This document shows positions 1,121 to 31,128 of a stretch of 64,000 bases of DNA, one piece after another. Where the stretch lies: sequence record PV357171.2. One strand, written 5' to 3'. Numbering within the stretch: the stretch's first letter is position 1; each line of letters opens with the position of its first letter. The notes beneath the pieces are model-generated. The model saw only the letters and a program-made list of their open reading frames with translations. It was not told the origin of the DNA and did not search any database. The stretch is from a phage. A program made the translations under genes and the position numbers.

Positions 1121-1855
1121 ATGAATCAAGTTAAAACGAATATTACCCGTAATTTCCCGCATATTTCCCGCGTCATGATTTGGGATCTTGATGGCACTAT
1201 CGTTAATTCATTCCATCGTGTCGCGCCTTGCTTTGATAGCGACGGGAATTTAAATTTAAATAAGTATAAAAATGAGGCTTGCAAACATGATTTAATAATG
1301 CAAGATACTTTATTGCCTTTGGTGGAATATATGCGCCAATGCATGAATGACGCAAATACTTTAAACATTATTTGCACCGCTCGACTGATGAGCAAATCAG
1401 ACTATTATTATTTGCGTAAACAAGGATTGCGCGGGCGTGGTGATAGTAATATCCGTGTATTTTCCCGCGATACACTGCATAAATATTTTGAGGCTGATAA
1501 GGTTAGCGAAATATACCACAGCAAAGACGCAGTTTATAAATCGTATTATTTTGAGCTATTCAAACAACTATATCCGAACGCTGATTTTACAATGATTGAT
1601 GATCATAAAGGTGTATTATCAGCGGCAGCGTCATACGGATTTAAAACGCTGGACGCGCAAGCCGTTAATGATATTCTATCAATCGGCGTGGCATTGATAG
1701 GCGGAACCTTTATTGATGAATCTCTCGATGATGATAATGATTATCAGTTCCTAGCGGACCGATTGAAATTATGTTGGGAAAGTATGACCGAGGAAGAACG
1801 CGCAGAATATAGTTGCAGCCCGCAACAATATATTGAGAAATTAAAAGTTGCGTAA
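1121..1855 (+). CDS. dmp: 5'-deoxynucleotidase, HAD superfamily (T5 Dmp-like)
   Basis: 244 aa; HAD motif I DxDGT in IWDLDGTIVNS near N-terminus; SD GGAG upstream. Confidence 0.65.
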   Translation: MNQVKTNITRNFPHISRVMIWDLDGTIVNSFHRVAPCFDSDGNLNLNKYKNEACKHDLIMQDTLLPLVEYMRQCMNDANTLNIICTARLMSKSDYYYLRKQGLRGRGDSNIRVFSRDTLHKYFEADKVSEIYHSKDAVYKSYYFELFKQLYPNADFTMIDDHKGVLSAAASYGFKTLDAQAVNDILSIGVALIGGTFIDESLDDDNDYQFLADRLKLCWESMTEEERAEYSCSPQQYIEKLKVA

Positions 1856-2017: not shown

Positions 2018-2557
2018 TTAACTGTTTAATTGGGCAACGTCTGGTATACTTCCTTTGAACATCTCCTGTATTGCAAAGTCACCATGAAATGTCCTTCTTA
2101 GTAAATTTGCATAATTTACGGCATCTTCTAATCCGCTATAGGGAAAGTACTTAGTAGTACCCCTTATCAGCCCCTGTTTATCATGTAATCTTACCATCCA
2201 CTTCTGAAGTTCTTTATGCCATGTAACATTTAGATAGCCTGATGATGCTCTTGAGATTCTGCCATTATGATTATTCTCTGTAATTGAAGCCTCTCTTAAA
2301 TTTGACCATCTATTATTTAGTTTATTCCTATCTATGTGGTCTACACATTCCTCTGGCCATCTATTCTCCATAATAACAAAAGCTACTTGATGTGCATAAG
2401 CTTTAAACCCTCGATACTTAAGCTGCCTATATCCCCTATTTAAAGTACCTGCTTCTTTACCCTTACGATTGCCTCTTTTCCAGGTAAAAACTCCGGTTTC
2501 GGGATCATAAGCAAATACTTCTTGTATTTCCTGTATGTTTAAATTATTCTTCATCAC
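2018..2557 (-). CDS. HNH homing endonuclease
   Basis: N-terminal YDPETGxFxW motif shared with three other ORFs in window; HxDxNxxNNRxxNL HNH core. Confidence 0.7.
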   Translation of the reverse strand: MMKNNLNIQEIQEVFAYDPETGVFTWKRGNRKGKEAGTLNRGYRQLKYRGFKAYAHQVAFVIMENRWPEECVDHIDRNKLNNRWSNLREASITENNHNGRISRASSGYLNVTWHKELQKWMVRLHDKQGLIRGTTKYFPYSGLEDAVNYANLLRRTFHGDFAIQEMFKGSIPDVAQLNS

Positions 2558-2789
2558 TCACCTTTGCCCGAAATCTCTTCCGCGACGCCCGAGATCCATC
2601 CGACCACTCCCGCTCAAACTCCGCACGTTTCTCGTCAAACTTCCGCTCCCTTTCCGCAATCTTCCGCTCCCTTTCCGCAATCTCCCGCGATACTTCCGCA
2701 GTATACTTACGATGCTTGTTAATAGCCGCAGTCATTCCGAAAACTCCCGCAAGTACCCCGATAATAAAAGCAATTATAATACTAAACAT
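2544..2789 (-). CDS. small membrane protein (81 aa), N-terminal TM helix then highly charged ER/K-rich tail
   Basis: Hydrophobic segment FSIIIAFIIGVLAGVFGMTAA; charged repeat REIAERERKIAERERK; overlaps neighbours (coupled chain). Confidence 0.5.
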   Translation of the reverse strand: MFSIIIAFIIGVLAGVFGMTAAINKHRKYTAEVSREIAERERKIAERERKFDEKRAEFEREWSDGSRASRKRFRAKVSDEE

Positions 2790-2976
2790 CTAATTCCCTC
2801 TCAATTTGCAGAATACGGGTACTATCACAACGTTGGAGTTCTACTAATTTTTCTAGAGCAAATTGTTGTTGTTTTACCTGAGCTTCTAGAGTTTTTAGGC
2901 GAACATACGCGTTATAAGAAACAATGAAAGTTGCCCAGACTAGTATTACTATTAGTGTAGCTACTACTTCCATCAT
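2782..2976 (-). CDS. small single-pass membrane protein (64 aa), paralog family MEW/MEV-TM-coiled coil
   Basis: TM segment VVATLIVILVWATFIV followed by coiled-coil-like tail; ATGA overlap with upstream ORF. Confidence 0.5.
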   Translation of the reverse strand: MMEVVATLIVILVWATFIVSYNAYVRLKTLEAQVKQQQFALEKLVELQRCDSTRILQIERELDV

Positions 2977-3080
2977 TTACGTTTCTCCGTTAGTAAAGTT
3001 TCAATTCTAGCTAAGTGATTATCTAAAATACATTGCCCAATAATCATAATTCCCAGTAATGAAATAATTACCCATTCCAT
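2973..3080 (-). CDS. small single-pass membrane protein (35 aa), paralog not in ORF track
   Basis: Hand translation: MEWVIISLLGIMIIGQCILDNHLARIETLLTEKRK; TAATG overlap at 5' end and ATGA overlap at 3' end; DNA-level repeat with the adjacent paralog. Confidence 0.4.
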   Translation of the reverse strand: MEWVIISLLGIMIIGQCILDNHLARIETLLTEKRK

Positions 3081-3235
3081 TATTTACGCTCCTCTAATAA
3101 AGTTTCAATTCTAGATAACCTATTACTCAACTGCATTAATTTAACCTCTACTTGGGTTACAGAGGTATCTATTACACGTAAGCCTACAAAGAGAAGTATC
3201 AGTAGGATGAATATGCCAATAATTACCCATTCCAT
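3080..3235 (-). CDS. small single-pass membrane protein (about 51 aa from internal ATG of track ORF 3080..3265)
   Basis: MEWVIIGIFILLILLFVG TM then ...RIETLLEERK tail; start ATG shares one base with upstream stop. Confidence 0.5.
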   Translation of the reverse strand: MEWVIIGIFILLILLFVGLRVIDTSVTQVEVKLMQLSNRLSRIETLLEERK

Positions 3236-3426
3236 TAAATCCACCCCGCCATAGCTGCTAACCAAAAACCTACGAAGATTAGGAATAATACAAAACCAAA
3301 TCCGTAAATATTAATCCACGCTTCGTACACTTCTCCGCGTCTGTTCTTTCTTTTGTTTGACATATCTTTCCTGCTCCTATAAATATAGTATTTGGAATAT
3401 TTTATAATTTGCGCATAGCCAACCAT
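3235..3426 (-). CDS. small membrane protein (63 aa) with basic N-terminus and C-terminal TM helix
   Basis: KRKNRRGE basic patch then GFGFVLFLIFVGFWLAAMAGWI hydrophobic C-terminus. Confidence 0.45.
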   Translation of the reverse strand: MVGYAQIIKYSKYYIYRSRKDMSNKRKNRRGEVYEAWINIYGFGFVLFLIFVGFWLAAMAGWI

Positions 3427-3539
3427 GCTCGTGATTTCCTAGAAGGGCTTTTCACTTTCTTGCATAGTGTTTTCTGCTAGTACACCATCCAAGAAATAAA
3501 AAATTTAGTTTACTTGGATGTCTTTTTGCTTTATACTAA

Positions 3540-3806
3540 TTACAAGTAATTAGATTGCTCTAGTTTAAATTTACAATCACCATATTTAAGGTCAAACTGA
3601 CTGAGATCCCACCATCCAAACTTAGTACGGAGCTGTACTACTGGAAAGCGATCTCCCTTAATACGAACTTTTTGAACCTTGAGACCGTAATGTTCTTCTC
3701 CCTCACCACCAAAAGATTTTACAAATCCAGTACAAAATGGTTTGGGAGCAGGTGCACAACCAGATAACATAACTGCGGCAACTAGTGTAATCACAAACTT
3801 TTTCAT
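3540..3806 (-). CDS. llp: lytic-conversion lipoprotein (Llp-like receptor-blocking lipoprotein)
   Basis: Signal peptide with lipobox LSGC; 88 aa; divergently transcribed from receptor-binding protein gene as in T5. Confidence 0.7.
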   Translation of the reverse strand: MKKFVITLVAAVMLSGCAPAPKPFCTGFVKSFGGEGEEHYGLKVQKVRIKGDRFPVVQLRTKFGWWDLSQFDLKYGDCKFKLEQSNYL

Positions 3807-3837
3807 ATTTATCTCTCCATTTCTAATTTATGAATAT

Positions 3838-3866
3838 ATTATAGCAAAATAGAGAGATGAAAGCAA
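3838..3866 (-). promoter_or_regulatory. sigma70-type early promoter for llp (TTGCTT-17-TATAAT on minus strand)
   Basis: Hexamers read from sequence; member of the T5 early promoter family. Confidence 0.6.
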
Positions 3867-3891
3867 ATACATTTTTATAATAGGAGATTAT

Positions 3892-5649
3892 ATGGGTTTT
3901 TTCGCTGGAAAATATAGCGATGGTAAGACCGTACTATCTTTAAATACTGAATCTGGTGGTGACATTAATCGTCACTATAGTCCAAATACCAATAGTATTT
4001 TTCATAGTGATATGCCATTTGTCCTAGTTGATGGTACTTATGAGTCTGGGTTAGGTGATGCCGGTAATGGGTTTTTTGTATGTCAGATGCCCTCTGACAT
4101 AATAAATATTAAATCCAATGACCCCGGTAGAGTTATATTAACTGCTATTGAGATTAATGGTACTCACAGAGCTTTTCTTAATGGTACTCAGAGTAAGGTG
4201 GGTCAAACTATAGTTGCCACTCAAGCAGATCCTTTTAGATCTTTTGCTAGTGTTTCCCAGACTAGTGGATTTGCATTTGGTAATAGCCTGGCATCTGGTA
4301 CATATAACTATAATCCATCTATAGGGCATGAAGAATCTATTTCTAGGAATGGTACAGGGGGTACTACCTTACATAGTACGTATCATGGTATAGTTAGGCC
4401 GGGTGCAGGAGCTCCAGTAGGTATTACTGTTGCAGAAGCTTTTGCACAGTTAGGATTCCCTACTAATAGTAGTACAGTACCTATAGATGGTAATAACCAA
4501 TATTACTGGGACCCAGGATGGATGTCTCCTTTAGGATCAGCACACAGAGGGCACGATTGGTTTTATGTTTGTAACTCTAACATACGTGGGTATGGTGGGG
4601 TAAGACAAGGTCTTCCTGGTAATGTAAATACTATGTATCATGATGGAGGTAACAGATTTGTTTGTAGGGGGTCTACAACTAATTTAGCTAACCAATCTGG
4701 TAACGCTACAATATTACAGGATTGGTATAACATAACCCCTACTAAAGTTATTTGGTATGTTCTGAATTTAAGATACTCAAATGGTGGTATGAGTATCTCT
4801 GGTAATCCTTTTACTGGTTCAGATATTCTTATATCTCCTTCTAATTTCATAATTAAAGGGGTTAGTCTTCCCAATACTGGATACAAGTTTATTAACCAGA
4901 ACGCTTTTGGTAACTTAGGTTATAGACCAGATATGGAGTATATAGGAAATAACGCAGCGTATACCGGGGTTTTTGGGGATACCACGGCAAGGTGTGAACT
5001 TGTAGGATCTAGTAATGGGGGTTTGTGGTCTCCTGTAGATTATGGAGGGGCTAAATCTCAAATTAGTATTTATAAATTCGGAGCTGGTAAGCAATGGTAT
5101 GTAAACTCTAGGGATAATACTATCGGTAATGAACACGGGGTTGTTTGGGGACCATCAGCAGTTCCATTACGACTTTTTGGTGGAAATGTAGGTAGCTCTT
5201 ACATGGGGGATGATATTACTCCCAGCTACCCGGGAACAGGGGATAGATACGTTGGTTTATCAACTATTGGGCTAGGTATACCGGGTGGCAATGCTACAGT
5301 AATTCTTACCACTGAAGTTATATCAGGTAACCTTAACTGTGCAGGTGTTCCTGCTAATACATGGAATAACGGTGTGTTTCAAGTGCAAGGAAGAAGAGCA
5401 TATAGCTATAGTAATGGAGATGCAATATTCCACCAGATTTTAACATTACCAGTAGGGTATTTAGTACCTTTTCATACTACATCTGCTTTTAGATACACAC
5501 CTAACAATGCCCTAAGTAGAAATAGTTTTATATACACTGCTAAAAATCTGGGGAATGGAAATGTAGAGTTAGGGGTAGTTATGCACGTAAGTTTAGGTAG
5601 TGCAGTTTTCCTACCGAGATTAAGAGTAACAGTTCAACGCCTTACCTAA
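3892..5649 (+). CDS. oad: receptor-binding tail protein (pb5/Oad-like)
   Basis: 585 aa; adjacent and divergent to llp; SD AGGAGA upstream; position before terminase as in T5. Confidence 0.6.
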
Positions 5650-5659
5650 AGGAGGAAAT

Positions 5660-6142
5660 ATGGCAAATGATGTATTAGTACCAGATCTTATGTCCCCTGA
5701 AGGGATGGATGTAATTGAAGCATATTTACAGTGTGGGAGTGATGTGCCTTCTGCCGCACGTAGTCTTGGAATGTCCGAAATTGCTTTTAGAGATATTATG
5801 AATCGTAGTGAAGTTAAGAACTACTTAAATGATATTTTTATGGAGAGTGGTTTCCGTAACAGAGATCGTTTATTTGGTGTTCTGGATGAAGTTATCAAGC
5901 GTAAACTAGAGGAACTAGAAGAAACTGGCATGGGTTCTGACCAAGATATTATGGATATTCTCTGGAAAGCACATAAAATGAAAATGGAAGAAATGAAAAT
6001 GATGGTAGAACTGGAGAAAGTTAAGGCAGCAGCCCGTACTCCAGCTAACCAGACCAACATCCAGAATAATATTATTGCTGGAGCTGGGGATCAAAACTAC
6101 ATGGACTTAATTACTTCCCTAGCTACTGGAGGTAAGAAGTAA
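5660..6142 (+). CDS. putative terminase small subunit
   Basis: 160 aa, HTH-like N-terminus, immediately upstream of and overlapping the large terminase start. Confidence 0.45.
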
Positions 6143-7458
6143 TGGAAGTATCAAGACCTTACGTTAATACAGTAGATGTTATTGATTTCGGAATAGATAA
6201 ACGTTTCTTTCGTCTACCTGTTTCGGGAATACTAGCACAAGAAGGTATTACACCTAATGGTCCTCAAATAGCGATTATTAATGCTCTAGAGGATCCTAGA
6301 CATCGTTTTGTAACGGCGTGTGTATCACGCCGTGTAGGTAAATCCTTCATCGCATATACTCTTGGGTTCCTAAAATTGCTGGAACCTAATGTGAAGGTGT
6401 TAGTAGTTGCTCCTAACTATTCACTGGCCAACATCGGATGGTCTCAGATTCGTGGTCTTATTAAAAAATATGGCCTACAAACTGAACGTGAGAACGCTAA
6501 AGATAAGGAAATTGAGTTAGCTAATGGTTCTCTGTTTAAACTAGCTTCCGCTGCTCAGGCTGACTCCGCAGTTGGACGTTCATATGATTTTATCATCTTT
6601 GACGAGGCGGCAATTTCCGATGTGGGTGGTGATGCCTTCAGGGTTCAGCTGCGTCCTACCCTAGATAAACCTAATTCTAAGGCTCTATTTATTTCCACCC
6701 CTCGTGGAGGTAACTGGTTTAAAGAGTTTTACGCCTACGGATTTGATGATACGTTGCCTAACTGGGTATCTATTCATGGTACATATCGTGATAACCCTCG
6801 TGCTGACCTGAATGATATAGAAGAAGCACGTCGTACGGTTAGTAAAAACTACTTCCGCCAGGAATATGAAGCTGACTTCTCTGTATTTGAAGGTCAGATT
6901 TTTGATACTTTCAATGCTATTGACCATGTTAAAGACCTTAAGGGTATGCGTCATTTCTTTAAAGATGATGAAGCATTCGAAACGTTGCTTGGTATCGACG
7001 TTGGTTATCGTGATCCTACAGCAGTTCTTACTATTAAGTATCATTACGATACGGATACTTACTATGTATTAGAAGAGTACCAGCAGGCGGAGAAAACTAC
7101 AGCTCAGCATGCTGCTTACATTCAGCACTGTATAGATCGTTATAAAGTTGATCGTATTTTTGTTGACTCCGCGGCAGCTCAGTTCCGTCAAGACTTAGCT
7201 TATGAGCATGAAATTGCATCAGCTCCAGCTAAAAAATCTGTCCTAGATGGCCTAGCATGCCTGCAAGCACTGTTCCAACAGGGTAAGATTATTGTAGATG
7301 CCTCATGCTCCTCCTTAATTCATGCACTGCAGAACTATAAGTGGGATTTCCAAGAAGGTGAAGAAAAATTATCCCGTGAAAAACCACGTCATGATGCTAA
7401 CTCTCACCTTTGTGATGCGCTGCGCTACGGAATTTACTCTATTTCCCGTGGTAAATAA
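6142..7458 (+). CDS. terminase large subunit
   Basis: 438 aa; Walker A-like VSRRVGKS, ATPase plus nuclease domain layout; length as I recall for T5 TerL. Confidence 0.85.
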   Translation: MEVSRPYVNTVDVIDFGIDKRFFRLPVSGILAQEGITPNGPQIAIINALEDPRHRFVTACVSRRVGKSFIAYTLGFLKLLEPNVKVLVVAPNYSLANIGWSQIRGLIKKYGLQTERENAKDKEIELANGSLFKLASAAQADSAVGRSYDFIIFDEAAISDVGGDAFRVQLRPTLDKPNSKALFISTPRGGNWFKEFYAYGFDDTLPNWVSIHGTYRDNPRADLNDIEEARRTVSKNYFRQEYEADFSVFEGQIFDTFNAIDHVKDLKGMRHFFKDDEAFETLLGIDVGYRDPTAVLTIKYHYDTDTYYVLEEYQQAEKTTAQHAAYIQHCIDRYKVDRIFVDSAAAQFRQDLAYEHEIASAPAKKSVLDGLACLQALFQQGKIIVDASCSSLIHALQNYKWDFQEGEEKLSREKPRHDANSHLCDALRYGIYSISRGK

Positions 7459-7629: not shown

Positions 7630-8268
7630 ATGGGTCGACAAAAGCTAACAATAAAAGATATAAATACTAGATTAGCTGATCGTGGAATCCAAATTGTCGG
7701 TGAATATGTAAACCAGCGTACAAAAACAGTATTTAGATGCCAGAGAGCACACGTTTGGGAAGCAACACCACATTCTGTACTTCATATGAGGAGAGGTTGT
7801 CCACACTGCTCCAATAATACAATATCGTTAGATGAAGTTAGTAACAGAATATCTAATATAGGGTATACTCTGTTAAGCAGCTATACTAATGCTAAAACAA
7901 AACTACATCTACGTTGCAATAATGGGCATGACTGTTTCATTACCCTAGATGGATTGACTCAAGGTAAAAGATGTCCTTATTGTTCTCTTAAATGGGAAAA
8001 TGGCGGATTCCTCTATATCATGTCCTCCTGCAGAGGTACTAAAGTAGGCATAAGCTTATACCCTGAGAAGCGGCTGAACGAGGTTAAAAGAGAATCTGGA
8101 TTTTCTGACATATACTTGTTCACCGTGTATTATCTGCCGGATAGAGAGACTGCTTTAGATTTAGAGAAGGAAGTTCACAGAAAATATTATAATAAAAACT
8201 GTGGGTTTTCTAATTTTACAGGAAGTACGGAATTTTTTAATGTTGCTCCTGAAGATGCTTTCAAATAG
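7630..8268 (+). CDS. putative homing endonuclease, T5orf172/GIY-YIG-like domain with duplicated N-terminal zinc-ribbon modules
   Basis: Two repeats ending CPHC and CPYC; C-terminal GGFLYIM...GTKVGIS...R...E pattern; inserted between terminase and portal. Confidence 0.6.
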   Translation: MGRQKLTIKDINTRLADRGIQIVGEYVNQRTKTVFRCQRAHVWEATPHSVLHMRRGCPHCSNNTISLDEVSNRISNIGYTLLSSYTNAKTKLHLRCNNGHDCFITLDGLTQGKRCPYCSLKWENGGFLYIMSSCRGTKVGISLYPEKRLNEVKRESGFSDIYLFTVYYLPDRETALDLEKEVHRKYYNKNCGFSNFTGSTEFFNVAPEDAFK

Positions 8269-8494
8269 GGAAGCATTCTACAAGAAATATGAGCATGAGT
8301 TAGTTAGGGACGTGGTAACATTGTGCCAGCACCATCACCAATTATTACATAAGGTTTACACAAAAGAACCTCCTTTATTTTCTGCTAATAAGCAAAAAGT
8401 GTGGGTTCAAAAGCAGAAAGACAAATTACAGAATCCTCAAGAAAAGACACAAGTCAAGACTGAAACAAAATCAGGATTCGCAAGGTTCTTATAA
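8255..8494 (+). CDS. hypothetical small protein with His-rich HNH-like motif (LCQHHHQLLH)
   Basis: Track ORF 8201..8494, start trimmed to internal ATG; stop overlaps portal ATG (TAATG). Confidence 0.3.
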   Translation: MLSNREAFYKKYEHELVRDVVTLCQHHHQLLHKVYTKEPPLFSANKQKVWVQKQKDKLQNPQEKTQVKTETKSGFARFL

Positions 8495-9594
8495 TGGGTT
8501 TTAAAAGCTGGATTACTGAAAAGCTAAATCCGGGTCAACGTATTATAAGAGACATGGAACCAGTTAGTCATCGCACTAACCGTAAGCCTTTTACCACTGG
8601 ACAAGCCTACAGTAAAATTGAGATTCTCAATAGAACTGCTAATATGGTTATAGATAGTGCGGCGGAGTGTTCTTATACTACTCTCTTAAATGTACGACCT
8701 AATCCATTCATGGATATAAGCACATTCCGTAGACTTGTAGTCACTGACCTACTTTTTGAAGGTTGTGCATACATCTATTGGGATGGCACATCGCTTTACC
8801 ATGTCCCTGCTGCACTGATGCAAGTAGAGGCAGATGCCAATAAGTTTATCAAAAAATTTATATTTAATAACCAGATAGACTATCGCGTAGATGAGATTAT
8901 CTTTATAAAAGATAACAGTTACGTGTGTGGCACAAATTCTCAAATTTCTGGACAATCTCGCGTTGCTACTGTTATTGACTCTCTTGAGAAGCGTTCTAAG
9001 ATGCTTAACTTTAAAGAGAAATTCCTCGATAACGGAACTGTGATTGGTCTTATTCTTGAGACGGATGAAATCCTGAACAAGAAATTGCGTGAGCGTAAAC
9101 AAGAAGAATTACAACTAGATTATAATCCTAGTACTGGTCAGTCCTCTGTCCTGATAGACTTTAAGGAAGACATCGAAGGATTTAATAAATCCATCTGTCT
9201 AGCCTTTGGTGTTCCGCAAGTGCTACTTGATGGCGGTAATAATGCGAACATTCGACCAAACATCGAATTGTTCTACTATATGACTATCATTCCTATGCTG
9301 AACAAGCTGACTAGTTCTCTTACTTTCTTTTTTGGTTATAAGATTACTCCTAATACTAAGGAAGTAGCTGCATTAACACCAGATAAAGAAGCTGAGGCTA
9401 AACATTTAACCTCATTGGTTAATAATGGTATTATGACTGGTAACGAGGCTCGTTTAGAGCTGAACCTTGAACCTTTAGATGATGAGCAGATGAATAAGAT
9501 TCGTATTCCTGCTAACGTTGCTGGTTCTGCAACAGGTGTATCTGGTCAAGAAGGTGGTAGACCTCAAGGTTCCACCGAGGGAGATAAAGAATGA
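8494..9594 (+). CDS. portal protein
   Basis: 366 aa; position between terminase and prohead protease; translationally coupled to neighbours. Confidence 0.65.
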   Translation: MGFKSWITEKLNPGQRIIRDMEPVSHRTNRKPFTTGQAYSKIEILNRTANMVIDSAAECSYTTLLNVRPNPFMDISTFRRLVVTDLLFEGCAYIYWDGTSLYHVPAALMQVEADANKFIKKFIFNNQIDYRVDEIIFIKDNSYVCGTNSQISGQSRVATVIDSLEKRSKMLNFKEKFLDNGTVIGLILETDEILNKKLRERKQEELQLDYNPSTGQSSVLIDFKEDIEGFNKSICLAFGVPQVLLDGGNNANIRPNIELFYYMTIIPMLNKLTSSLTFFFGYKITPNTKEVAALTPDKEAEAKHLTSLVNNGIMTGNEARLELNLEPLDDEQMNKIRIPANVAGSATGVSGQEGGRPQGSTEGDKE

Positions 9595-26332: not shown

Positions 26333-26755
26333 ATGAGTACTGAAAATAGAGTTATAGACTTAGTAATAGATGAGAAAGTACCATATGGTTTAATGATGCA
26401 GTTCTTAGATGTTGATGATAGTACTTATCCACCTACAAGTACCCCTGTTAACTTAACTGGGTATTCTCTAAGGGGTACTATAAAAAATAGCCTAGATGAG
26501 AATGCGGAGATATTGGCATCCTTTACTACTAATATTATTGATGCTGCTCAAGGGGCTGTAGCTATAAGTTTACCAGTAGAATCTGTGGAGAATATAGGAG
26601 CTAAAGCATCTAAAGATAGAGATAAATATAATCCTCGTCAGCGATTCGCAGGATACTATGATATAATTATGACTAGAGATGTTATAGGATCTGCAATTAG
26701 CTCCTTTCGTATAATGGAGGGTAAAGTATTTATCAGTGATGGGGTAACTAAATAA
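26333..26755 (+). CDS. collar protein (p132-like)
   Basis: 140 aa; synteny before L-shaped fibre gene. Confidence 0.5.
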
Positions 26756-29103
26756 TGGCAGTAACTACTAAGATTATTGTACAACAGATACTAAATATTG
26801 ATGATACTAAAGCTACTGCTAGTAAATTTCCTAGATATACAGTAACTCTTGGTAACTCTATTAGCTCTATTACTGCAAGTGAGTTAGTATCATCTATTGA
26901 GGCCGCAGCTAAGTCTGCTGCAGCTGCAAAAGACTCTGAAATAGCTGCTAAGACTTCAGAGCTTAATGCTAAGAACTCTGAACAGGAAGCTGCTATTTCT
27001 GCTGGAGCTTCTGAAGCCTCTGCCACTCAGTCCGCTACATCTGCTACTCAATCTGCAGAATCAGCGGATAGATCTGCAGAATCAGCCGCAGCAGCTAAAG
27101 TATCAGAGACTAATGCGAAAGCTAGTGAAACTAAAGCTAAAACATCCGAGACTAATGCAAAAGCCTCAGAAACTAATGCAAAGTCTAGTGAAACCAAAGC
27201 TAAAACCTCGGAAACTAATGCTAAAACTAGTGAAACCAACGCTGCTGCTTCCGCTGCTGCTGCAAAAATTAGTGAGACTAATGCTAAGACTAGTGAGACT
27301 AATGCTGCTGAGTCTGCTGCGTCTGCTGCCGATTCTAAAGGTTTTAGGGATGAAGCAGAAACATTTGCTGCACAAGCGGCTGCCTCTGCTGCGGCTGCTA
27401 AAGTATCCGAGACTAAGGCAAAAACATCAGAAACTAATGCAAAGTCTAGCGAAACTAAAGCTAAGGCTAGTGAAACAAATGCTGCTAGTTCTGCAACTTC
27501 AGCTAGTCAATCAGTAACCACTATTCAAGGTCTAAAATCTGACGTTGAGGAATTAAAATCTGATACTCAAACCATAAAGAATAGTGCTGTAACTGAGACA
27601 ACAGCTTTAAAAAATCAAGCGGCTACTTCTGCAACTAATGCTGCTGCATCTGCTACTGAAGCGGGAAAACAAGCTACTAATGCTGCTAATAGTGCTAATA
27701 GTGCTAAAACTGAGGCTGACCGTTCAAAAACTGAAGCTGATCGTGCTAAAGCTGAGGCAGATAGATCTGAAGCCGCTATTAATGATACTCCTGAGCTGCA
27801 GCCGTTACCTGATGTATGGATACCTTTTAATGACTCCTTAGATATGATTACCGGCTTCTCACCTAGCTATAAAAAGATTATAATTGGTGACGATGAAATT
27901 ACAATGCCTGGTGACAAGATTGTTAAGTTTAAACGTGCATCAACTGCGACATATATTAATAAATCCGGCGTTTTCACTGTTGCGGGAATTGATGAACCAC
28001 GTTTTGAACGTGATGGTCTGCTTATTGAGGGGCAAAGAACAAACTATATTCTTAACTCCCTTACTGTTTCTAAATGGGGTGCATCTTCGTGGTTGACAAT
28101 CTCATCAAGCGGAGTTGATAGCTTTGGTTTTACATATGGCCGATTTGATGTTCAGTCTAGTAATGTTGGAAGCACAACATCCGGTAATATTGCTGTGGCT
28201 CCTTCACCAAGAGCTTTTGACGTTACTGGTGATGAGAAGTATTGCACTATATCTTGCCGATGCAAATGTGAATCAGACATAGATATTCGATGCAGACTCC
28301 GATTTGAGAACTACGACGGGACTGCCACATCCTTCATTGGCGATGCGTACATGAATATGCAGACTTTAGATATAACAACTACAGGTGGAGCAGCAGGTAG
28401 AATTACAGCTAAAGCGGTCAAGGATAATGCTACAGGATGGATATTTTTTGAAGCGACAATAAAAGCACTAGATACCGAAAATATGATTGGTGGCCAAGTT
28501 CAGATAGCACCATCTCAAAGAGTTGGATCTTTTGCAGATGGCGATCATATTATTGTTGCAACGCCGCAATTTGAAGGTGGGGCGACTGCATCGTCATTCA
28601 TCATATCTGATACAGTTGCAGCGACAAGGGCTAGCGATATGGTGACAGTGCCAATTAAAAACAATCTTTATAGCTTACCTTTTACGGTTCTTTGTGAGGT
28701 ACATAAGAATTGGTACAAAACACCGAATGCAGCACCGCGAGTTTTTGATACTGCAGGTCATCAAACTGGAGCAGCAATCATTCTTGGATTTGGTTCTTCA
28801 ACAAATTACGATGGGTTTCCATATTGCGATATTGGTGGGTCTAACCGACGTGTTAACGAAAACGCATCGCTTGAAAAAATGGTTATGGGGATGCGTGTGA
28901 AAGAAGATCAGATGACATGTGCGATAAGTAATGGGCGTATATCTAGTGAGACAAAGACAACTTGGACTTATATTCAAAGCTCTGCAACCATTCGTATAGG
29001 TGGTCAGACAACAACAGGGCAGCGTCATTTATTCGGGCATGTCAGAAATTTTCGAGTATGGCATAAAGCATTGACTGACCGTGAATTGAAGGAGTCGGTA
29101 TGA
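26755..29103 (+). CDS. L-shaped tail fibre protein A (LtfA-like), heptad-repeat shaft and C-terminal ConA/LamG-like lectin domain
   Basis: N-terminus resembles T5 pb1; SETNAK-type repeats; C-terminal motif FGHVRNFRVWHKALTDRELKE. Confidence 0.65.
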   Translation: MAVTTKIIVQQILNIDDTKATASKFPRYTVTLGNSISSITASELVSSIEAAAKSAAAAKDSEIAAKTSELNAKNSEQEAAISAGASEASATQSATSATQSAESADRSAESAAAAKVSETNAKASETKAKTSETNAKASETNAKSSETKAKTSETNAKTSETNAAASAAAAKISETNAKTSETNAAESAASAADSKGFRDEAETFAAQAAASAAAAKVSETKAKTSETNAKSSETKAKASETNAASSATSASQSVTTIQGLKSDVEELKSDTQTIKNSAVTETTALKNQAATSATNAAASATEAGKQATNAANSANSAKTEADRSKTEADRAKAEADRSEAAINDTPELQPLPDVWIPFNDSLDMITGFSPSYKKIIIGDDEITMPGDKIVKFKRASTATYINKSGVFTVAGIDEPRFERDGLLIEGQRTNYILNSLTVSKWGASSWLTISSSGVDSFGFTYGRFDVQSSNVGSTTSGNIAVAPSPRAFDVTGDEKYCTISCRCKCESDIDIRCRLRFENYDGTATSFIGDAYMNMQTLDITTTGGAAGRITAKAVKDNATGWIFFEATIKALDTENMIGGQVQIAPSQRVGSFADGDHIIVATPQFEGGATASSFIISDTVAATRASDMVTVPIKNNLYSLPFTVLCEVHKNWYKTPNAAPRVFDTAGHQTGAAIILGFGSSTNYDGFPYCDIGGSNRRVNENASLEKMVMGMRVKEDQMTCAISNGRISSETKTTWTYIQSSATIRIGGQTTTGQRHLFGHVRNFRVWHKALTDRELKESV
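27040..27490 (+). repeat. in-frame tandem repeats (about 21 bp units, SETNAK/SETKAK) inside LtfA gene
   Basis: Visible periodicity in protein and DNA. Confidence 0.7.
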
Positions 29104-29493: not shown

Positions 29494-31128
29494 ATGTGCG
29501 TCCTATTGGGTCCACCCCTCTTGCGGGGGATCCTGTTGGGGGACTATGATGCCGCAACTAAACGTTGGGTAGAGAATAAGATTAACACTGGTACAGTTGG
29601 ACCCACTATGAATGGTGTTATGAACTACGGTGTTGGTGATTTCCACCTTCGAGATAGCCGTGCATACATTCAACCATACGAGGTGGTTTCTGATGGGCAG
29701 CTCCTTAATAGGGCTGACTGGCCGGAGCTTTGGTCTTACGCTCAAATGGTGGGGGCAATTAGTGATGCAAAATGGTTAGCAGATCCACATGAGAGAGGCA
29801 AATACTCAGTTGGTGATGGTCGAACAACCTTCCGTGTTCCTGATCGAAATGGTGTTCAATCTGGCTCCTTTAAAGGTCTTTTTGGACGTGGTGATAGTGG
29901 GGTAACTTCTAACCTCGGTAGAACGAATGAGTCTTCTGCTCCTAACTTAACTGCCTACTTCAGAACCGTAACTGATACGTCAATTATTGAAAATGATGCT
30001 GCAAGTGGTGCTGGATACCCATCCGAGGCATACCAAAAATATGCTCGGCTAAGCGCTATTAAAGAAGAGGCTGCACTAGAAATATACCCACGTAGATGGA
30101 ACTTTGATGCTTCTCGCCAATCTAGTGTATATGGGCGTTATGGTAATACAGATGAGATTACACCTAATAACTTCACCGGTGTATGGGTAATCCGGGCGTC
30201 TGGTGGTTTCGTTGCAGCAAATACATCTTGGAGTGTTATTAACGGCGATGCGACCAGACCAACAGACAGCACAAGAGTTGAATCAGGGAAAGTAAGCGTA
30301 GAATATAAGATTGGAACGGCTATTGAGGCGCAGGGTAAAGTCTATACTGCTGCAACAATGGGCGGGACATATTCTACCCAGCTCTCTGTTAAAAATGCCA
30401 CTACGGGTAAAGAGAAAGATATCAGCGTCACAGAAGATGGTGATCTGTGGTCTGACCGCTTTAAGGGTAGATTTGGCACCCGTATGGCTTGGAGTCAGAC
30501 CGGCTGGGTCTATGGCACATTTTCCCAAGCCAACCAAGCCATCGGTAACGACTACAGTTTCTACAGTATTCTTAGCGGCTCCCAAAGTTCAAGCTCGGGC
30601 TATAAAACTCATACCCATATTGGTCAAATCCATAATGACAATGGTTCATTTGCTGATAGCTGCTGGCATGTTGCAGGTGATGATGATAATAAATATGGTG
30701 TACGTTTAAAAATTCAGCCTAATAATAATAGTATTTATTTCTATTCTTGGTGGCCTAATGGTGCAGCAACCTATACTTTGCAATTAAATGCTATATCTGA
30801 TTCTCGCTTAAAGCATGATATTAAGGCTATAGATGCAACTAAATCCATCGAAATATTAAAAGGATTGGAATTCCAATCCTTTGTATATAATAACGATGAA
30901 AAATCTCGTATCCGACGTGGGGTTATTGCTCAGCAAGTAGAGACTATAGAACCACTTTATGTAAAAACTAGAAGATTTTATAATAATGATGGGGTAGAGC
31001 AAGAACAGAAGGAATTAGATACGACTCCAATGCTTCTTGACACTATGCATGTCGTGCAAGAACTTATAAAACGGATTGAATCTTTGGAAGAAGAACTCAA
31101 GCAATTAAGAGCAAACCTAGTGCAATAA
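29494..31128 (+). CDS. L-shaped tail fibre protein B (LtfB-like) with C-terminal intramolecular chaperone (peptidase S74-type) domain
   Basis: C-terminal SDSRLKHDIK...coiled-coil chaperone signature; start codon assignment uncertain. Confidence 0.6.
   Translation: MCVLLGPPLLRGILLGDYDAATKRWVENKINTGTVGPTMNGVMNYGVGDFHLRDSRAYIQPYEVVSDGQLLNRADWPELWSYAQMVGAISDAKWLADPHERGKYSVGDGRTTFRVPDRNGVQSGSFKGLFGRGDSGVTSNLGRTNESSAPNLTAYFRTVTDTSIIENDAASGAGYPSEAYQKYARLSAIKEEAALEIYPRRWNFDASRQSSVYGRYGNTDEITPNNFTGVWVIRASGGFVAANTSWSVINGDATRPTDSTRVESGKVSVEYKIGTAIEAQGKVYTAATMGGTYSTQLSVKNATTGKEKDISVTEDGDLWSDRFKGRFGTRMAWSQTGWVYGTFSQANQAIGNDYSFYSILSGSQSSSSGYKTHTHIGQIHNDNGSFADSCWHVAGDDDNKYGVRLKIQPNNNSIYFYSWWPNGAATYTLQLNAISDSRLKHDIKAIDATKSIEILKGLEFQSFVYNNDEKSRIRRGVIAQQVETIEPLYVKTRRFYNNDGVEQEQKELDTTPMLLDTMHVVQELIKRIESLEEELKQLRANLVQ

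Follow-up and report, generated by a model that had tools for sequence, protein, structure and literature searches.

Which outer-membrane protein admits a T5-like phage into its host, and does the small lipoprotein encoded beside the phage's receptor-binding gene block that same protein? Both questions are raised by a divergent gene pair at positions 3540 to 5649 of a 64,000-nucleotide stretch of phage DNA (sequence record PV357171.2), hereafter the window, in which llp, a gene for a lipoprotein of 88 amino acids (aa), stands back to back with a gene for a receptor-binding protein (RBP) of 585 aa. An initial annotation had related the RBP to T5 pb5, had taken its shorter length as a sign of a receptor other than FhuA, of BtuB or FepA type, and had proposed that the lipoprotein co-evolved with this receptor use. 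Our analysis indicates that the pair is very probably the BF23 (BtuB) version of the host-recognition and lytic-conversion module of T5-like phages. The window as a whole belongs to a T5-like phage of the genus Tequintavirus (Demerecviridae), with T5-like phages only among the matches when its first 25 kb were compared by megablast, and its nearest GenBank relatives show 91.7–93.2% nucleotide identity over 90–96% of the query. At about 92–93% identity to any record, the phage may represent a new species-level Tequintavirus.

Both reading frames were found at the exact coordinates first proposed, llp at 3540..3806 on the minus strand and the RBP gene at 3892..5649 on the plus strand, 85 bp apart, and they are real genes as judged by homologues of the 88-aa protein in 402 phage records and of the 585-aa protein in 541. 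Downstream of the RBP gene lie the terminase genes, terS for the small subunit (5660..6142, plus strand; PHROG 3802, E 6.5e-91) and terL for the large subunit (6142..7458, plus strand; Pfam Terminase_6N and Terminase_6C), which together with the back-to-back orientation reproduces the T5 llp/oad arrangement named in the initial annotation. According to the BASEL paper, the RBP genes of T5-like phages invariably sit at the position before the terminase genes, and the adjoining terS and terL therefore fix the RBP gene in its canonical place. The divergent llp and a gene for a pb4-like straight-fibre protein in the same genome (24257..26329; PHROG 3890) complete the genomic context of a pb5/Hrs protein. 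Taken over 2.3 kb, the module is 97.2% identical in nucleotide sequence to Salmonella phage SP01 and Escherichia phage ECOP18 and 94.8% identical to T5_ev212, and a single match covering at least 80% of it is present in 117 records.

By a match that spans residues 1–585 (E 2.8e-274), the 585-aa protein falls in PHROG 4815 ('receptor binding tail protein'), and a phmmer search of PDB sequences returned T5 pb5 only (E 1.9e-50), in two stretches, 1–141 and 270–531. All of its database relatives (31/31) carry PF26860; no family was matched in a Pfam search of the protein itself, which used a local Pfam copy, perhaps without the PF26860 model. Its AlphaFold model (pLDDT 89.3, pTM 0.89) was matched by Foldseek to the pb5 chains 8b14_B (E 6.5e-31, TM 0.65/0.69) and 8a8c_B (E 3.9e-27), the first match after the pb5 chains reaching E 1.3e-3 with a TM of 0.11. 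The T5 gene, T5.157 of NC_005859, has 1923 nt and encodes 640 aa, which agrees with the length given for pb5 in the initial annotation, and its product is 30–33% identical to the 585-aa protein. The fold is common to both, with the N-terminal ~100 residues and a central core conserved; T5 pb5 is 55 aa longer and has longer L2 and L4 loops, and it is the shorter L2 and L4 of the window RBP that account for most of this difference. Judged by profile matches and predicted structure, the 585-aa protein is thus a true pb5 homologue, not a T5 allele.

Within the pb5/Hrs family, the window RBP falls in the BtuB clade, being nearer to the RBPs of BtuB-dependent phages (55.6–97.9% identity) than to those of the FhuA or FepA types (33% at most). 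It is 99.1% identical to the IME178 protein, for which no receptor evidence was found, and 97.9% identical, with 12 substitutions, to that of DaisyDussoix (Bas31), followed by DT571/2 (73.8%; BtuB use shown genetically), SPC35 (72.8%; BtuB reported), BF23 (68.2%; the classical BtuB case) and phiR2-01 (55.6%; BtuB reported); its identity to the RBP of S124, for which a FepA type has been proposed, is 28%. The relatives in the 56–74% band have all been published as BtuB-dependent (PMC4728585, PMC10644984, PMC8594841), and btuB mutants were used to show that DT57C and DT571/2 depend on this receptor (PMC4728585). Bas31 is the decisive comparator for the receptor class of the window RBP: in a genome-wide screen its btuB scores were ~15 in both replicates and it was assigned to BtuB (bioRxiv 10.64898/2026.04.02.716166, supplementary table), and the BASEL table likewise gives BtuB as its receptor. 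The same preprint lists T5_ev212 as BtuB and describes 23 BtuB-binding Demerecviridae whose RBP is ~30% identical to pb5, which is the relationship in which the window RBP itself stands to pb5. With Bas31 at 97.9% and membership in the clade, the window RBP almost certainly binds BtuB. The earlier expectation that a shorter protein would point away from FhuA was borne out, in that alignment with the pb5 proteins of T5, BF23 and other relatives gave no close identity to the FhuA-binding pb5 of T5 (30–33%) and 56–98% identity to BtuB-dependent relatives; of the two receptors suggested in its place, BtuB agrees with the data (97.9% to Bas31) and FepA does not (28% to S124). The assignment predicts host range, the route to resistance (loss of btuB) and cross-exclusion among T5-like phages in biocontrol cocktails.

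FepA-binding T5-like phages do exist (H8 and S124), and the window RBP is shorter than T5 pb5, both of which could be taken to favour recognition of FepA or another TonB-dependent transporter. We find this scarcely credible in view of an identity of just 28% to the FepA-type RBP of S124, set against 55.6–73.8% to the BtuB-dependent RBPs compared and at most 33% to the FhuA and FepA types; moreover, the gene beside the S124 RBP encodes a 103-aa product that is unrelated to the window Llp and has no lipobox. FhuA, in turn, was inferred in 2026 as the receptor of the same 585-aa allele in Citrobacter phage Cit2, for whose RBP PMC12980165 gives 96.9% identity to the T5 RBP (NC_005859), clustering with it and use of FhuA. 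By direct BLASTP, however, the Cit2 RBP (L008:601-2358) is 30% identical to T5.157 of NC_005859 (T5 oad, L001:4428-6350) and 97% identical to the window RBP, so that the published 96.9% cannot refer to T5 pb5, and the FhuA inference for Cit2, drawn from a wrong identity figure, is unsound. Bas31 and T5_ev212, which carry the same allele, are btuB-dependent, and the adjoining Llp is of the BF23/BtuB type, as PMC12980165 also noted for Cit2; the clustering of the Cit2 Llp with those of BtuB phages, which was puzzling in that study, is what is expected of a BtuB module. On these comparisons the published FhuA assignment for this allele looks wrong, and it is extremely improbable that the window RBP binds FhuA. 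Both FhuA and FepA specificity were rejected on the strength of the identities and of the experimental data from relatives.

The S124 record also calls for a remark of its own. Its gene at L006:1067-1378 is annotated 'receptor blocking protein, T5 Llp-like', and the 103-aa product has neither a signal peptide nor a lipobox and no similarity to Llp of the BF23 or T5 type; an error in the annotation, or in the calling of the gene, is possible.

Divergence among the BtuB-type RBPs is concentrated in two variable segments, delimited by block identities and by the alignment with pb5, namely residues ~91–270 (4162..4701, plus strand) and ~451–540 (5242..5511, plus strand). Block identity to BF23 and SPC35 is 42–60% in the first of these, with 78–98% in the flanking blocks. 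In T5 pb5, the loops L1 (tip Gln115), L2 (tip Phe170) and L4 (570–590) insert into FhuA (PMC9586334); residues ~91–270 of the window protein align with L1 and L2, and the end of the second segment aligns with L4, whose counterpart in the window protein is much reduced in length. For the L4 region, the window, DaisyDussoix and DT571/2 have a short form in common (TSAFRYT...PNNALSRN), that of BF23 and SPC35 being longer. The two segments are likely to be receptor-contact loops, which in this phage would contact BtuB.

The same contrast is seen at the DNA level when positions 3500..5700 of the window are compared with BF23 (L003), DT571/2 (L004) and SPC35 (L007) to place the borders of recombination. 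Identity to BF23 and DT571/2 is 95–98% across llp and the spacer, drops to ~75% over the opening 100 nt of the RBP gene, remains at 46–82% along it, and is back to 93–95% at the RBP stop codon and terS; SPC35 shares the first ~300 nt of the RBP gene at 92–99% and then breaks. By these alignments, the RBP gene is an exchangeable recombination cassette with sharp borders. Llp is spread more widely than the RBP allele, with at least 95% identity in 176 records compared with 102 for the RBP, and Llp proteins at least 95% identical adjoin RBP alleles as low as 67–74% identical, from which it follows that Llp is matched to the receptor and is not co-evolving with a particular RBP allele, as Golomidova et al. 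already described for DT57C (PMC4728585). The proposal of a co-evolved Llp was therefore right in that a BF23/BtuB-type Llp fits the receptor, and overstated in that one and the same Llp accompanies different alleles. More tentatively, and as something less likely than not, we raise the possibility that at least two sets of receptor-contact loops exist, one in the window, Bas31 and DT57C and the other in BF23 and SPC35 (residues ~91–270 and the L4 equivalent), which would be swapped by recombination, with breakpoints at the RBP gene or within it, and dock on different surface loops of BtuB while a near-invariant Llp is retained. Were this the case, phages could evade loop variants and mutants of BtuB through such swaps, both loop types would still be excluded by a periplasmically acting Llp, and the arrangement would amount to direct genetic evidence that the BF23-type Llp acts allosterically from inside, like T5 Llp.

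The product of llp is the 88-aa precursor of a lipoprotein of BF23 type, which would block the receptor and so exclude superinfection. It starts MKKFVITLVAAVMLSGC, and its N-terminus as far as the lipobox runs MKKFVITLVAAVM-LSGC; residues 1–16 (3759..3806, minus strand), the predicted signal peptide, consist of MKK and a hydrophobic core, and the lipobox L14-S15-G16-C17 is encoded by the codons TTA TCT GGT TGT (3756..3767, minus strand). LPAM_1, the Pfam model of the lipoprotein lipid attachment site, matches residues 1–18 at 23.7 bits, above its curated cut-off of 20 bits, in agreement with the lipobox (LSGC) lipoprotein described in the initial annotation. The predicted mature protein has 72 aa, starting at Cys17, with Ala at position +2. 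Under the Lol sorting rule, an Asp at +2 decides the membrane sorting of lipoproteins, and Llp, which has no Asp there, would be sorted to the outer membrane. It is identical at 86 of 88 residues (97.7%) to BF23 Llp (DQ097178), a lipoprotein published as blocking BtuB, the differences being A7T, in the signal peptide, and A35E, and it is 96.6% identical to DT57C Llp and 98.9% to ECOP18 Llp. Across an alignment of 12 family members, G16, C17, C25 and C78 are invariant and position 35 is variable (A, E, S, V, W, T and P are seen). When DT57C llp was expressed from a plasmid, BF23 and the DT phages plated more than 100-fold less well and T5 was unaffected, and resistance from expression of BF23 llp has also been reported (PMC4728585). 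At 97.7% identity to BF23 Llp, we infer that the window Llp blocks BtuB.

More distant comparisons of Llp were less informative. Llp has a match in PHROG 1119 ('Cor superinfection exclusion protein'; E 2.2e-26), residues 1–82 aligning with profile positions 1–78, as do T5 Llp (E 1.1e-19) and phiR2-01 Llp (E 1.2e-19), co-membership in a PHROG, built by remote-homology clustering, being weaker evidence than membership in a curated family. With phmmer, no relative outside a tight T5-like cluster was found among 1.84 billion representatives (50% identity), so that no deeper profile could be built. Among PDB sequences there were chance matches at best (E 0.45 or worse), and no BtuB-Llp structure turned up.

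The 85-bp spacer (3807..3891, 79% A+T) holds both ribosome-binding sites and the llp promoter. A generic promoter and terminator scan found nothing in this region and 3 sites overall, compared with 9.1 in shuffled sequence; it missed the llp promoter because the -35 element matches at just 3 of 6 positions, and it was replaced by a hexamer scan combined with a conservation alignment. These place a putative strong early-type sigma-70 promoter of llp at 3838..3866 (minus strand), in which 17 nt separate a -35 of TTGCTT (3866..3861) from an extended -10 of TGcTATAAT (3846..3838), followed by a transcription start expected near 3831 and a Shine-Dalgarno sequence GGAGAG at 3818..3813. The whole intergenic region is 97–98% identical to those of BF23, DT571/2, SPC35 and DaisyDussoix, and both hexamers and the TG are invariant in these phages and in the otherwise diverged spacer of phiR2-01. 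A block AAAAAT...TTGCTT, then TATAAT, is also present upstream of T5 llp (L001 6360..6400). These blocks resemble the strong early promoters of T5, of which PN25 is a classical example. As an observation on the blocks themselves, they are kept between BF23-type phages and T5, whereas the coding DNA of llp and the RBP gene of the two types cannot be aligned.

On the other strand, the RBP gene has a Shine-Dalgarno sequence, AGGAG (3882..3886, plus strand), 5 nt before its ATG at 3892. Immediately before this sequence stands a perfect TATAAT (3876..3881), too close to the ATG to serve the RBP start, and neither the generic and hexamer scans nor the conservation alignment revealed a convincing promoter of the RBP gene in the spacer. 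Of the shared promoter region in the initial annotation, the llp half, with its strong sigma-70 promoter, is thus retained, and the RBP half is not. Decker and colleagues in 1994 reportedly described T5 llp as an early gene, and in the BF23 record llp is given a predicted early promoter; going by such published T5 work and record annotations, the two genes, although back to back, probably belong to different temporal classes.

Downstream of llp, no canonical intrinsic terminator was found, the hairpin present at ~3456..3496 (minus strand) having no following U-run. This hairpin is moderate, the 116-nt stretch around it folding at -22 kcal/mol (z = -2.26 against shuffles). For the equivalent stretch of BF23, its record shows a promoter marked 'absent in T5'.

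How would the two products work in the course of infection? The RBP would sit as a monomer at the end of the straight central tail fibre and bind the vitamin B12 transporter BtuB in the outer membrane, probably by means of variable loops that enter the barrel through its extracellular mouth; this binding would commit the phage to DNA ejection. Llp would be expressed from an early-type promoter of its own. After export and lipidation at Cys17 it would be delivered to the inner leaflet of the outer membrane, where it would bind BtuB and make it unusable as a receptor, such that superinfection would be prevented and progeny would not be wasted on cell debris. The model for this step is T5, in which Llp binds the periplasmic face and the plug of FhuA, the plug taking up a non-native conformation and the loops EL7 and EL8 folding inwards across the pb5 site, and in which Llp contains a Cys11-Cys58 disulphide (PMC9586334). 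The window and T5 proteins alike have a lipid-bearing Cys, a second Cys 8–10 residues on and a third near the C-terminus, and both match PHROG 1119 over their full length. A global hhalign alignment of the mature proteins brings the three Cys and the motifs C-x-A-Y and G-x-W into register, and the full-length comparison reaches 91% probability, yet is confined to residues 1–29, with the signal peptide and first Cys; a Foldseek search with Llp gave nothing significant. By analogy, the architecture of the window Llp would be that of T5 Llp and the mechanism is probably the same, and the two may also share a small beta-barrel fold.

Several points weigh against the BtuB reading as laid out here and against the mechanism attached to it. 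The receptor assignment comes from close relatives, not from this phage, and 12 RBP residues differ from Bas31, as does Llp from BF23 Llp by A35E; no promoter of the RBP gene was found by generic or hexamer scan. Comparison of mature-only profiles of the BF23-type and T5-type Llp was not significant (hhalign E 0.17 local, 0.74 global), which is why we claim a shared architecture and not homology, and the periplasmic allosteric mechanism would be carried over by analogy from the T5 Llp-FhuA crystal structure. One could therefore accept BtuB as the receptor and still suppose that Llp blocks it otherwise, from the cell surface or through BtuB insertion or stability. The non-significant homology of the mature proteins, the absence of a significant Foldseek match for Llp and of a BtuB-Llp structure from the PDB sequence search, and an older in vitro study that, in the account of it cited in PMC9586334, put T5 Llp outside the cell are all consistent with such a mode; with the cysteine layout shared with T5 Llp on the other side, we consider it unlikely, if worth keeping in mind. 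Finally, A35E introduces a charge change into the mature protein that is not seen in BF23, DT571/2, SPC35 or DaisyDussoix, and the 88-aa frame might on this account be a decayed or inactive copy that no longer protects. We rate this as very unlikely, however, with lipobox, promoter, Shine-Dalgarno sequence and reading frame intact, with every residue retained that is invariant in the family, with a variable family column 35 in which E occurs, and with an ECOP18 Llp that is 98.9% identical to that of the window.

Around the BtuB module, the gene content is that of a T5-like phage with some local differences. Downstream of llp, four small open reading frames of 63, 61, 64 and 81 aa (2544..3426, minus strand; PHROGs 8596, 6369, 5851 and 6447) are positional counterparts of T5.159-162 and BF23_00172-175, and the T5 record (NC_005859) notes T5.159-162 as single-transmembrane-domain proteins; a match of the 81-aa product to LapA_dom was below threshold. 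Between these frames and a dmp-like 5'-deoxynucleotidase gene (1121..1855) lies a gene for an HNH_3 homing endonuclease of 179 aa (2018..2557, minus strand; Pfam E 7.6e-12), at a place equivalent to that where the right terminal repeat of BF23 begins. This stretch was covered to at least 80% in just 27 of the 219 matching phage records, the best being SHSML-45 (99%), in which it is annotated as a homing endonuclease, and the gene appears, from this patchy distribution, to be a mobile insertion. A second endonuclease-like gene, of 212 aa (7630..8268, plus strand; PHROG 681 endonuclease and PHROG 559 HNH), is located between terL and a reading frame at 8494..9594 that occupies the T5 portal-gene position; the T5 endonuclease gene T5.154 occupies the equivalent site, and the 7630..8268 gene accordingly looks ordinary. 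Two lateral tail-fibre genes (26755..29103 and 29494..31128, plus strand; 782 and 544 aa; PHROGs 1419/5481 and 6921) take the place of one long pb1-type gene, which suggests a branched LtfA/LtfB arrangement as in DT57C and Bas31; if so, O-antigen specificity would be set independently of the BtuB module.

The module itself is already known, having been described for BF23 in 2006, and it is routinely annotated and present in hundreds of genomes; the window pair does not depart from the published descriptions and adds no new biology to them. In BF23 (hrs/llp; Mondigler, Ayoub & Heller 2006, J Basic Microbiol 46:116; DQ097178), order, divergence and the position before terS/terL are the same, llp and the intergenic DNA are 97–98% identical and the receptor class is BtuB too, the difference being an RBP of 595 aa, compared with 585 in the window, at 67–68% identity. 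DT57C and DT571/2 (Golomidova et al. 2016, PMC4728585) share the BF23-type Llp and the short C-terminal variable loop, and their RBP gene, whose product is 73.8% identical to that of the window, is replaced cassette-like relative to BF23, as in the window; DT57C llp excludes BF23-type phages and not T5. The closest counterparts are Bas31, IME178, ECOP18, SP01, Cit2, T5_ev212 and ~100 further records, with an RBP of 585 aa at 95–99% identity, the same Llp and module DNA at 94–97%, from which the window allele differs by a handful of substitutions, set in a genome ~92–93% identical to any record. T5 pb5 (oad) and Llp, known in structure with FhuA (8A8C, 8B14, 8A60; PMC9586334), have the same module architecture and the same lipoprotein and disulphide layout, but the receptor is FhuA, not BtuB, and the mature Llp sequences cannot be significantly aligned. 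Further afield, the Cor lipoproteins of T1- and phi80-like phages (PHROG 1119) resemble Llp in their small size, in their place in the outer membrane and in putting out of action a TonB-dependent transporter that serves as phage receptor; a Cor-annotated gene of phage grams has 33.8% identity to the window Llp, whereas the T1/phi80-like phages belong to another family and their receptor is mostly FhuA, as against BtuB for the window.

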